DNA of 64,000 nt from Escherichia coli (lineage in GTDB: Bacteria > Pseudomonadota > Gammaproteobacteria > Enterobacterales > Enterobacteriaceae), in assembly GCF_044324785.1 (NCBI RefSeq), contig NZ_CP172127.1; one strand, written 5' to 3'. Position 1 is the first letter of the stretch, and each line of letters begins with the position of its first letter. The notes under the pieces were generated by a model, which made no database searches, was not told the DNA's origin, and saw only the letters and a program-made list of their open reading frames with translations. The translations under genes and the position numbers were made by a program. This document shows, piece by piece, positions 52,905 through 54,759 of this stretch.

Positions 52905-53881
52905 CACTGGATTCCCGGTATGAGTAACTTTTATTAACGATAAGCCAGGCTATTTGTGCATTGGTGTTGAGGTGAGAATAGCACCAGTCAGGTGAGCAGA
53001 TTATAATGTTACGAGACTTAAGCACCTCTGTAGCTCCCATGGTCTGATAGTTTCTCCCGTATACCGCTCATGCAACTCCCGCATTAAAATATACTGTTCC
53101 TTCCGGATAATTACGTTAAAATATACACCTGCGTGCATCTGTGTCAGACTCCGTTAGATACCAGCGTACATTGTAAACATGCCGGATGCACGCAATACAA
53201 TAATCGGTCTTTTCGGAGTTATAGTCACCAGGCTGGCATCCCGTAAATATGTATCAGGTAGCAATTCAGGAAGCGAACAAAAGCGCCTGGAGAAGGTTAT
53301 CTCTGATAATAATTTACATGAAATGTCTCCTTTATTCTTCGCGAATAAGGCCTTCAGTGTTCTCCCCTTTTCAGCAATTCTTACCGTAGTAATCACTCCT
53401 GCCTGTGTATAACACGAGAATTGCCAGAGTTTAACGTTTCGGTATCGTTATCCTGCATGATGTTGAACAGAACCGGGCGTGAATTCTGCGCCAGAATTTT
53501 CTTTCGAGGAACATTCCGGGTTATCTGTAGTACAGGAGGAGATTTTCTCCTATTTCAAATAAAATTCAATGACAGGTGAATATTTAAATATAAATGCATC
53601 GCTTCAACAGAGAAATCGGAATTACGCCCGGAACCAGGCCTGAATGAATAATGGAGGAGGTAAAATAATATTATTGATGAAAATATCAAATTAAGTCCCC
53701 CTTCTCCTTCCCCAGCTTAAATATACTTACTTTTTCACTGGATAATATGTTATTGAATTACAAAGTTGATCCTGATATACATGATTTCCGGCTCTTGCAT
53801 CCAGTGATAACTTTATATAGTCCTGCAAAGGCGAACTTCGTAAAAGTATACTTTTCTGTTGTAAGCATTGAGGTATCGAAA

Positions 53882-54106
53882 ATGAGTGAGAATACCGGAA
53901 AATCCCATGAAAATAAAATGGTTATTATTGACTACGGGGAATATGATGAATACCTTCGTAACGCGTGGTTCCGAGGTTTTCGGGAAGGTTATGATATGGC
54001 GATGAAATTTGGATTAGGCTGCCAGCAATGTTATGAAACAGGTGAAAAAATAGCATGCGCAAGAGCTGAAGAATGCCGTAAAAAGATTAAGGTAATAAAA
54101 CACTGA
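53882..54106 (+). CDS. hypothetical small Cys-rich protein (74 aa)
   Basis: ATG 53882 with GAGGT upstream; C-terminal C-x2-C and additional Cys. Confidence 0.35.
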   Translation: MSENTGKSHENKMVIIDYGEYDEYLRNAWFRGFREGYDMAMKFGLGCQQCYETGEKIACARAEECRKKIKVIKH

Positions 54107-54234
54107 AACGGGCTGTCTGATATTTCTGTGAGCTAAAAAGACACCGTAATACAGGTATCTCACAGTAACTGAAAGATATGCACATGCCGCCAGGGAAGAT
54201 TAAGGGTAAGGGAGGATATCCCTTACCTGATTGA

Positions 54235-54759
54235 TTATGGGATGATACCACAGGCAATTCTTGCACCACCGCCACCTAGAGGTTCAGGATGGTCATCATG
54301 ATTATCACCTCCTGCGTGGAGCATTAGCGAACGGCCATCGAGCTCCTTTAATTCAGATAGTCTTGGCGCAAGCACCGGGTAGGTTGCTTTTCCGTCATGA
54401 GTGACATAAAGCGCAGGGAGATCACCCAGGTGGCCATCAGGAGACCATGGACCGAGATGCTTCCCTGTTTTTTCCGGGTCAAAGTGACCACCTGCAGATA
54501 AAGCAGCGACAGTTTTTCCATCTTTCAGGGCAGGAGCACAACTTGCGTTTTCATGTACATGAAAACCATGAATGCCGGCGGGTAAGGAGTGAAGATCAGG
54601 GGTGAACAGCAGCCCGTAGGGTGTCTTCTGGATGGTTATTTTACCAATATTTCGCTCTTTTCCGTCACTATCAACAAGATTCATTGTTACATCTTTGGTG
54701 GCTGCATATCCACAGGATGATGTAGCCAGAATCACAAAGGCAATAAGTTTACGTTTCAT
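54235..54759 (-). CDS. sodC: periplasmic Cu/Zn superoxide dismutase (prophage-type SodC)
   Basis: 174 aa; signal peptide; metal-ligand motifs [28 protein letters not shown]. Confidence 0.85.

Follow-up and report, generated by a model that had tools for sequence, protein, structure and literature searches.

The sodC gene in this 64,000-nt stretch of Escherichia coli DNA (the window), together with the small gene that faces it, very probably forms a cargo module of about 1.2 kb set among the IS fragments of an ExPEC/APEC-type island. The module would supply the cell with a Sec-exported SodC of the SodCI/SodC-F clade and with a 74-aa protein, predicted to be a helical hairpin, whose gene is maintained by selection; a five-codon mini-ORF close by appears to be a chance feature. 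As delimited by blastn boundaries (alignment A1), the module spans 53716-54895 and has one gene on each strand; its DNA is 85% identical to the Klebsiella pneumoniae copy, compared with about 42% on both flanks. The earlier note on this DNA had asked whether the 74-aa ORF is conserved beside sodC elsewhere, and it is: the small gene lies less than 1 kb from this sodC lineage in all three of the diverged lineages that carry it, in E. coli, in K. pneumoniae and in metagenomic L008/L009.

By its profile matches and alignment, sodC (54235-54759, minus strand; WP_000823671.1 in RefSeq) is an ordinary, already annotated gene for a periplasmic Cu,Zn superoxide dismutase precursor of 174 aa, with its metal ligands intact. 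The protein matches Pfam PF00080 (Sod_Cu) at 6.2e-32, with 111.3 bits against a cutoff of 28.9, and scores 218.4 bits against the NCBIfam SodC equivalog NF007628, for which the cutoff is 165. The invariant columns of alignment A7 include the Cu ligands His67, His69, His92 and His148, the Zn ligands His92, His101, His110 and Asp113, the disulfide pair Cys74-Cys170 and the catalytic Arg167, all of which align to SodCI 1eqw; we take the roles of these residues to be those established for superoxide dismutases. Compared with the K. pneumoniae copy, sodC has a dN/dS of 0.09. The N-terminal 20 residues have, by inspection, the layout of n-, h- and c-regions and align with the leader of SodC-F, including a cysteine at position 16 (TSSC here, AASC in SodC-F). 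By homology to SodCI and SodC-F, the enzyme would be exported via Sec and would then gain Cu, Zn and its intramolecular disulfide in the periplasm, where it would dismutate superoxide that reaches this compartment from outside, for example from the phagocyte oxidative burst. The cell would then have two SodCs, the chromosomal enzyme and this additional, probably more robust, one.

How close is this enzyme to the SodCs carried by phages? The earlier note called the gene prophage-type, and for the protein the likeness holds: SodC matches PHROG_1975 at 2.8e-89 and is 79-80% identical to the Stx2a-phage SodC and to SodC-F1 and SodC-F2 of the E. coli O157:H7 lambdoid prophages (84% to Stx2a-phage SodC over the mature protein), with the same metal ligands. 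The locus, however, is an IS-rich island without phage structural genes. Identity to the mature Salmonella SodCI and SodCIII is about 67%. The closest solved structures are those of Salmonella SodCI (1eqw/6d52), which score 221 bits with the island SodC as query, compared with 191 bits for the chromosomal E. coli SodC (1eso). The SodC tree places the island enzyme in the same clade as SodC-F (94%), with bootstrap values of 94% and 98% for the nesting. On this sequence evidence, the island SodC belongs to the clade of phage-borne SodCs (SodCI/SodC-F) and is nearer to SodCI than to E. coli SodC, although the chromosomal enzyme, which is monomeric and RpoS-dependent, belongs to the same family of enzymes and fits the same NCBIfam equivalog. 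The SodC-F enzymes are dimeric, more stable, RpoS-independent and protective against H2O2 (D'Orazio 2008, PMC2569942), and a dimeric, protease-resistant enzyme is a known property of both SodC-F and SodCI (PMC2569942). SodCI (Gifsy-2) and SodCIII (Fels-1) are likewise horizontally acquired second SodCs of an enteric pathogen, but their genes are prophage-borne, between tail-assembly and host-specificity genes, and the island sodC is not. Similarly, the phage SodC-F genes are morons flanked by tail genes, with no 74-aa gene beside them, whereas the island sodC sits in an IS-rich island with a conserved upstream region and a partner gene of its own.

Unlike the chromosomal sodC, the island sodC is an accessory gene: of 5426 complete E. 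coli genomes, 125 carry the module, which occupies 150 chromosomal and three plasmid places. The surrounding pathogenicity island is of the ExPEC/APEC type and rich in IS elements, and sodC lies in it between iha and sitABCD, the latter a few kb from the module; relatives also carry aerobactin genes. Flanking the module are sitABCD, fragments of IS elements and the pseudogene of a group II intron reverse transcriptase, and the ORFs in the spacer at 53000-53700 and at 55018-55567 gave no family matches. The same 2.3-kb segment is found in Salmonella enterica, where it adjoins different genes. Colinearity of the window with strain PKF11 is confined to 47857-61965, and strain 23CRST007 matches it over 27111-61965. 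The AT-rich setting remarked on in the earlier note is real: G+C is 37-40% between 53200 and 54200, compared with about 50% in the surrounding DNA. When Salmonella and E. coli O157 come under oxidative attack by the host, additional periplasmic SodCs of the same clade help them to survive, and a sodC placed by sitABCD and aerobactin genes in ExPEC/APEC fits a bundled host-stress cargo and may add to fitness. In this respect the island sodC extends known biology and is no surprise. The new point is the small gene: an orphan under selection that has been kept beside one sodC lineage through three diverged contexts.

The small gene (53882-54106, plus strand) is annotated by PGAP as a 'hypothetical protein' (WP_001470144.1 in RefSeq). 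It is convergent with sodC, with 128 bp between the two stop codons, in agreement with the spacing of about 130 bp on the other strand given previously. A GAGG Shine-Dalgarno sequence lies at 53870-53873, 8 nt before the ATG, and its GAGGT is kept in K. pneumoniae. Gene callers differ on the start, predicting either 74 or 119 aa; the 119-aa version (ATG 53747) was rejected, its extension having two in-frame stops in K. pneumoniae. Comparative evidence indicates that the 74-aa ORF is a real, though uncharacterized, gene under purifying selection. Its dN/dS against the K. pneumoniae copy is 0.24 at a dS of 0.43, equal to the dS of sodC, and the Fisher p value is about 2e-4 to 9e-4. The reading frame is kept at 74, 74 and 75 aa in three diverged lineages.

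What kind of protein does it encode? The family consists of only three sequence types among the billions of proteins searched: HMMER against 1.84 billion representatives, together with a profile search that covered 5.8 billion proteins, brought in a single true relative, P0008, while P0009 and P0010 proved to be spurious matches to repetitive proteins. Eight matches in the JGI metagenomes are all of the E. coli-type module at 99% or greater identity and add no new diversity, and a degenerate CQQC[YF]ETGEK pattern had zero matches in 100,044 species-representative genomes. There is no significant match to the 74-aa protein in Pfam, NCBIfam, PHROGs or PDB sequences. The best Pfam match of the family is to DUF7574, below threshold (E = 0.023, 15 bits against a cutoff of 27) and found with one member only, and the two best PHROG matches, with E values of 0.05 and 0.11, likewise each involve one member only. 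The C-terminal cysteine cluster reported earlier is present, at residues 47, 50, 59 and 65, but it is not conserved as a foursome: C47, C50 and C65 are invariant across the family, whereas C59 is replaced by Tyr in P0008, the most distant relative. The motif WxRGFREGY...CQQCxETGEK is also invariant. Structure prediction, which the earlier note had proposed for this protein, gave an AF2 model with a pLDDT of 77.7 from a three-sequence alignment (two sequences gave a pLDDT of only 53), in which helices at residues 18-42 and 47-73 form a hairpin with CQQC at the turn. The protein is thus predicted to be cytoplasmic and to form a hairpin of two helices, with CxxC at the apex and a disordered N-terminus. 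A Foldseek search with the model found nothing significant, the best hits being helical hairpins with E values of 1.5 in the PDB and 0.1 in BFVD. A four-cysteine zinc protein of the ribbon or knuckle type was considered and rejected: only three cysteines are invariant, no zinc-domain profile or fold is matched and the model is all-helical. Two antiparallel helices with CQQC at the turn are reminiscent of the helical hairpins of the Rad50 zinc hook and of Rop-like proteins, although the 74-aa protein has no sequence match or significant fold match to any solved or viral structure.

The lack of any family, domain or characterized homolog and the conflicting start calls might suggest that the 74-aa ORF is spurious, an open frame in non-coding, AT-rich sequence, but we regard this as very improbable in view of the dN/dS of 0.24 at a dS of 0.43, the conserved length and Shine-Dalgarno sequence, the confidently predicted fold, and a relative of 55% identity that is seen at the protein level (E = 4.8e-24) where blastn detects no DNA similarity. 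As far as the comparative evidence reaches, the notion of a spurious frame is refuted. The mini-ORF fares differently. It was described as a leader-peptide-like ORF with a perfect ribosome-binding site about 200 bp upstream of the 74-aa gene, and its position is right: MKISN* (ATGAAAATATCAAATTAA) lies at 53677-53694 on the plus strand, 205 bp upstream of the 74-aa gene start. The presumed binding site, the octamer GGAGGAGG, is at 53653-53660 on the plus strand and not within 53666-53688, and its end is 16 nt from the ATG, compared with a working Shine-Dalgarno spacing of roughly 5-10 nt. It occurs at chance frequency, with two copies in the window against 1.62 expected from shuffles, and an in-frame ATG at 53644 reads through it as Gly-Gly-Gly. 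The claim of strong initiation is therefore not sustained. There are 445 ATG ORFs of six codons or fewer in the window, 20 of which have a 5-mer Shine-Dalgarno core within 30 nt upstream. The mini-ORF, five codons from an ATG to a stop behind a purine-rich octamer, does look like an attenuator leader peptide, a very short ORF upstream of a gene, but the resemblance is superficial: it has neither functional Shine-Dalgarno spacing nor conservation, alternative hairpins, a terminator or regulatory codons. Lying outside the homology block, in DNA that is 43% identical to K. pneumoniae, it is absent from K. pneumoniae and L008. Even among nine near-identical copies the TAA stop has become CAA in six, and the isoleucine is leucine in two. 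RNA folding at the mini-ORF is no better than in shuffles (z = +0.77), Rfam gave no match there at E up to 1, and the terminator scan found no terminator-like site between 53695 and 53880. In addition, the candidate promoter of the 74-aa gene sits downstream of the mini-ORF. That MKISN is translated as a leader peptide controlling the 74-aa gene is therefore hardly credible. The comparative data largely refute a leader role, and both mini-ORF and octamer are best viewed as chance occurrences in an AT-rich spacer that is not conserved. The earlier proposal thus fails in its most unusual part.

What, then, are the origin of the module and the role of its orphan gene? One possibility is that a prophage decayed and left only the module, with sodC a moron like those of Gifsy-2, Fels-1 and the Stx phages and the 74-aa gene another phage leftover. 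Such an origin would agree with the phage-rich clade of SodC, with the low G+C and with a pseudogene at 55124-55378, annotated as a 'UCP030791 family putative phage-derived protein', which is the sole phage-related item in the flanks. That pseudogene is outside the conserved block, however, and sodC has no tail genes alongside, where the phage sodC genes lie between tail-assembly and host-specificity genes. Nor did 50,697 phage records and 2.9 million viral contigs contain a relative of the 74-aa gene, and no PHROG matches it below E = 0.05. Phage SodC nests inside a clade whose deepest and crown members carry the 74-aa gene, a pattern equally compatible with capture by phage and with transfer in the opposite direction. 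We therefore consider a prophage remnant unlikely and favor an island cargo module set among IS fragments, in which the 74-aa gene has been inherited along with its sodC in three or more diverged enterobacterial settings. Within this cargo module, the hairpin protein could be a dedicated partner of the sodC lineage or of oxidative-stress cargo in general, a metal- or redox-responsive hairpin that dimerizes via its apical CxxC in the manner of the Rad50 zinc hook and tunes the expression or metallation of SodC, and perhaps of KatG. The constancy of the pairing in three of three lineages speaks for this, as do the L008 copy, which is 465 bp upstream of katG on the same strand, the invariant cysteines and motif, the placement of the CxxC between two predicted helices, and the SodC tree, in which the pairing appears older than the split from phage SodC-F. 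On the other side, the two genes are convergent and not co-transcribed, and the 74-aa protein matches no DNA-binding or metal-binding family and would be cytoplasmic whereas SodC is metallated in the periplasm. Functional coupling to sodC cannot be obligatory, because IS insertions interrupt the 74-aa gene but leave sodC intact in one E. coli contig and in copies on IncF plasmids, and the pairing could simply reflect linkage on a short stretch of DNA that has spread recently, because the 74-aa gene is missing from the phage-borne members of this SodC clade. With a family of only three sequence types, the association statistics are necessarily thin. We regard a dedicated partner of this kind as unlikely. 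It is quite unlikely that the whole of a broader scheme applies, in which the hairpin represents a tiny, previously unnoticed family of cytoplasmic partners dedicated to the SodCI/SodC-F-type lineage (and to katG in one lineage), for instance as a metal- or redox-switched apical-CxxC dimer that couples oxidative or metal stress to acquired antioxidant cargo, and the phage sodC morons are derived copies that lack the partner. Our best guess for the orphan member of the cargo module is a small protein-protein or metal/redox-responsive accessory factor tied to oxidative-stress cargo, rather than a classical four-cysteine zinc protein. If the link is functional, the 74-aa protein would be a new accessory factor for periplasmic oxidative defense.

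Each gene of the module may have its own upstream control region. That of sodC (54760-54895, minus strand; alignment A5), presumably a promoter/operator, is 86.8% identical to K. pneumoniae, and its core is recognizable in the most distant lineage too. For the 74-aa gene, alignment A6 suggests a candidate promoter, TTGAAT-17 nt-TATACA at 53753-53781 on the plus strand, the hexamer positions of which are kept in all three lineages; it is weak, has no T at position -7 and was not reported by the consensus promoter scan. Possible shared regulators were also considered. Fur-box matches at 13 of 19 positions are present in both promoters (54838-54856 and 53768-53786), but 13 matches are reached by 17 of 457 background 140-bp windows and the sites are unconserved in K. 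pneumoniae and L008 (10-12 of 19), and Fur regulation was rejected. SodCI is PhoPQ-regulated; inspection by eye of the sequence upstream of the island sodC found no convincing direct repeat for a PhoP box. Both promoter regions contain the exact 10-mer GTTATTGAAT, yet it is not conserved upstream of K. pneumoniae sodC, and we discount it as a shared operator since two-copy 10-mers are common in the 1.7-kb stretch (16 families). At the other ends of the genes, a second hairpin (54123-54168, plus strand) was recognized from inverted repeat I8 and the minimum-free-energy fold just 3' of the 74-aa stop codon. The intergenic region folds with z scores of -2.2 and -2.5. It contains a G+C-rich hairpin at 54204-54228, which begins 6 nt after the sodC stop and which the terminator scan found to be terminator-like on both strands, with stems of 9-10 bp; lying between the convergent genes, it would terminate transcription in both directions. 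The stem of this hairpin is identical in K. pneumoniae, in a spacer that is overall only 76% identical.

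Does a superoxide dismutase gene of the prophage-borne type have to lie in a prophage? Reading of the sequence, together with an ORF listing of 53000-55500, places the 174-aa ORF of sodC at 54235-54759 (minus strand) and the 74-aa ORF at 53882-54106 (plus strand), in convergent orientation with 128 bp between their stop codons. Both are present as the earlier note described, as is the mini-ORF ATGAAAATATCAAATTAA (MKISN*) at 53677-53694 on the plus strand, and the AT-rich setting is equally evident, with G+C content dipping to 37-40% over 53200-54200 compared with about 50% in the neighbourhood. 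The sodC product is recognised both by Pfam Sod_Cu (6.2e-32) and, at 218 bits with a cutoff of 165, by the NCBIfam SodC equivalog. Among solved structures it comes closest to Salmonella SodCI (1eqw/6d52, 221 bits); the monomeric E. coli SodC (1eso) scores 191 bits. In an alignment with three relatives, its Cu and Zn ligands, disulfide cysteines and catalytic arginine do not vary. The proposed resemblance to prophage-borne SodCs is borne out by a match to PHROG_1975 ('superoxide dismutase precursor', 2.8e-89), by 79% identity to SodC from a pair of Stx2a-converting phages, and by a neighbour-joining tree of six SodCs, in which the Stx2a-phage protein nests within the clade of the window SodC, the Klebsiella pneumoniae copy and a distant metagenomic copy (bootstrap 94% and 98%). 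Identity to the Fels-1 and Gifsy-2 SodCs in the phage records is about 60%. The SodC-F1 and SodC-F2 enzymes of E. coli O157:H7, which belong to the same clade, form dimers, exceed chromosomal SodC in stability, do not depend on RpoS for their expression, protect against H2O2 and are lipid-anchored in part via a leader cysteine, the AASC lipobox partly anchoring SodC-F1 in the membrane (PMC2569942). Like SodC-F1, the window SodC has a cysteine at this place, Cys16, here in a TSSC context (leader residues 1-16, 54712-54759); this cysteine is kept in K. pneumoniae (ASSC) and is Tyr in the most distant copy, that of metagenomic contig L008.

The locus is an island, not a prophage. Of 5426 complete E. 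coli genomes, 125 carry the 1.5-kb region at 99% identity or more, nearly always on the chromosome, and 27111-61965 is colinear with strain 23CRST007 at 99.98%. The annotation of that strain gives iha, an additional amiC, ICE remnants and numerous IS fragments, followed by a pseudogene for a group II intron reverse transcriptase, the gene of the 74-aa 'hypothetical protein' (WP_001470144.1) and sodC (WP_000823671.1), and the stretch ends with IS256, IS200 and IS110 fragments and sitABCD (58121-61591 in the window). In a second carrier, the block is flanked by a CP4-type integrase/CbtA-YeeU region and by sitABCD and the genes for aerobactin; sat, iha and pap belong to the same island. Phage sodC genes are morons flanked by tail genes, whereas this one lies among IS elements; no phage structural genes were found in the annotated island stretch around it, and the sole phage trace nearby is a short RefSeq pseudogene, 'UCP030791 family putative phage-derived protein' (55124-55378, minus strand), so a prophage location is abandoned. 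That pseudogene, frameshifted and with an internal stop, lies just beyond the module shared with K. pneumoniae.

By colinearity with 23CRST007, iha (siderophore receptor/adhesin) occupies 28052-30139 and the extra amiC copy (Tat-exported amidase) 38764-40023, both surrounded by IS21, IS66 and IS110 debris, and at 50154-51662, within nested IS3 fragments, ltrA (group II intron reverse transcriptase/maturase) is a pseudogene broken by an internal stop. The 287 bp at 52957-53243 are 99% identical to ColV-type IncF plasmids, e.g. pAPEC-O2-ColV (NC_007675), and the sharp mosaic junction at 53243 suggests plasmid-island exchange. A 2.3-kb segment (52778-55064) recurs at 99.9% identity in Salmonella enterica among unrelated neighbour genes. 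In S. enterica GCA_004360265.1 (L020:1-5415) the sodC segment adjoins three large genes (549, 441 and 1690 aa), the last with weak DUF87/TrwB_AAD_bind matches; this looks like a defence-type or conjugation-type ATPase cluster.

The 74-aa ORF is, on sequence comparison, a real gene travelling with this sodC. Against the K. pneumoniae copy its dS is 0.43, dN 0.10 and dN/dS 0.24 (0.15 over residues 25-74), the values for sodC being dS 0.45 and dN/dS 0.09, and the excess of synonymous change in the 74-aa ORF is significant (p about 2e-4 to 9e-4). Its ATG is preceded by a GAGG at a distance of 8 nt. The 119-aa reading of some gene callers was rejected, as stop codons interrupt the longer frame in K. 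pneumoniae. Among 5.8 billion clustered proteins and 1.84 billion representatives the family has just three sequence types, those of E. coli, K. pneumoniae (81% identity) and a 75-aa metagenomic type (55%); eight metagenome matches to the gene are all of the E. coli type. Relatives are absent from 50,697 phage records, 2.9 million viral contigs and 100,044 representative genomes, and searches of Pfam, NCBIfam, PHROGs and PDB sequences, and of PDB and BFVD by Foldseek, gave nothing significant for the protein. AlphaFold2, run on the three-sequence alignment, predicts disorder at the N-terminus and a pair of long helices, 18-42 and 47-73, with CQQC at the turn between them (pLDDT 77.7; above 84 at residues 21-70). 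The C-terminal Cys cluster noted earlier is conserved in part: C59 is Tyr in the distant member, leaving only C47, C50 and C65. Three conserved cysteines and an all-helical model disfavour a four-cysteine zinc module.

Why does this gene accompany sodC? The 74-aa ORF was found beside sodC elsewhere, in K. pneumoniae and in metagenomic contigs. In K. pneumoniae it likewise converges on sodC, with unchanged spacing, and lies beside a FecCD-type ABC transporter; homology with the window runs over 53716-54895 at 85% identity, compared with about 42% outside the block. The metagenomic contigs L008 and L009 have the order sodC, IS3 remnant, 75-aa gene, katG, with sodC about 750 bp from the 75-aa gene beyond the IS3 remnant and the 75-aa gene 465 bp upstream of katG on the same strand (L008:1485-4348; 723-aa KatG-type catalase-peroxidase), so that two antioxidant genes flank it. 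The six-sequence SodC tree suggests that the pairing is older than the phage-borne SodC-F copies, which are without the small gene. A functional pairing, for example through a redox- or metal-switched accessory factor, seems rather unlikely to us, and the two genes may simply be linked. An IS2-like insertion truncates the 74-aa gene in IncF plasmid copies (L005:4001-4046 and L006:4001-4046) and a different, independent IS-type interruption, the second of two, affects E. coli contig L004 (8150-8249); the gene is therefore dispensable for sodC retention. IncF plasmids of E. coli and E. albertii keep only 54011-54823, that is, sodC with 64 bp of native upstream DNA. In the best-supported reading of sodC, the small gene and the age of their pairing, sodC would supply carriers with a second Cu,Zn-SOD for the periplasm, one of the robust SodCI/SodC-F type, as part of a host-stress cargo bundle (Sit, aerobactin, Iha) built by IS-mediated mosaicism; the 74-aa gene, which is under selection and has been inherited along with this lineage of sodC, encodes a predicted cytoplasmic helical-hairpin protein. 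Most of this is ordinary, sodC being already annotated and its clade already studied; the orphan neighbour is a modest lead.

The mini-ORF, held to be strongly initiated and leader-like, is a chance occurrence. The octamer GGAGGAGG taken for its ribosome-binding site does exist, but slightly away from where it had been placed, at 53653-53660 on the plus strand; it stops 16 nt short of the ATG, has two copies in the window where 1.62 would be expected, and is read through in frame from an ATG at 53644. The window holds 445 ATG ORFs of at most six codons, 20 of them with an SD-like 5-mer within 30 nt upstream. The mini-ORF sits in a spacer of about 470 bp between the ColV-type plasmid fragment (99%, ending at 53243) and the conserved module (starting at 53716); this spacer has no K. 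pneumoniae counterpart (43% identity). Among nine near-identical E. coli-type copies the stop TAA is CAA in six and Ile is Leu in two, and two of the five variable sites across 161 bp fall inside its 18 nt. The surrounding RNA folds no better than shuffles (z = +0.77), no terminator-like site lies between it and the 74-aa gene, and Rfam gave no match there at E up to 1.

Between the two genes, a G+C-rich hairpin with a 9-10 bp stem (54204-54228), found by the terminator scan with a terminator-like score on either strand, starts 6 nt past the sodC stop codon and dominates the spacer fold (z = -2.2 and -2.5); its stem is retained in K. pneumoniae despite spacer identity of only 76%. Past the stop codon of the 74-aa gene comes a second hairpin (54123-54168). 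The 136 bp 5' of sodC share 87% identity with K. pneumoniae, close to coding-sequence conservation, and their core is recognisable in the distant lineage, which makes regulatory constraint likely. A candidate promoter of the 74-aa gene, TTGAAT-17 nt-TATACA (53753-53781, plus strand), is a weak match whose hexamer positions are kept in all three lineages. Fur-like sites (13/19) in both promoters were dropped, as they are not conserved; the positive control was a Fur-box-like site (14/19) at 58027-58045, upstream of sitA. An exact 10-mer, GTTATTGAAT, is shared by the regions upstream of the two genes, the 74-aa gene (53749-53758) and sodC (54838-54847), on one and the same DNA strand, probably by chance, since this 1.7 kb holds 16 two-copy families of at least 10 nt.
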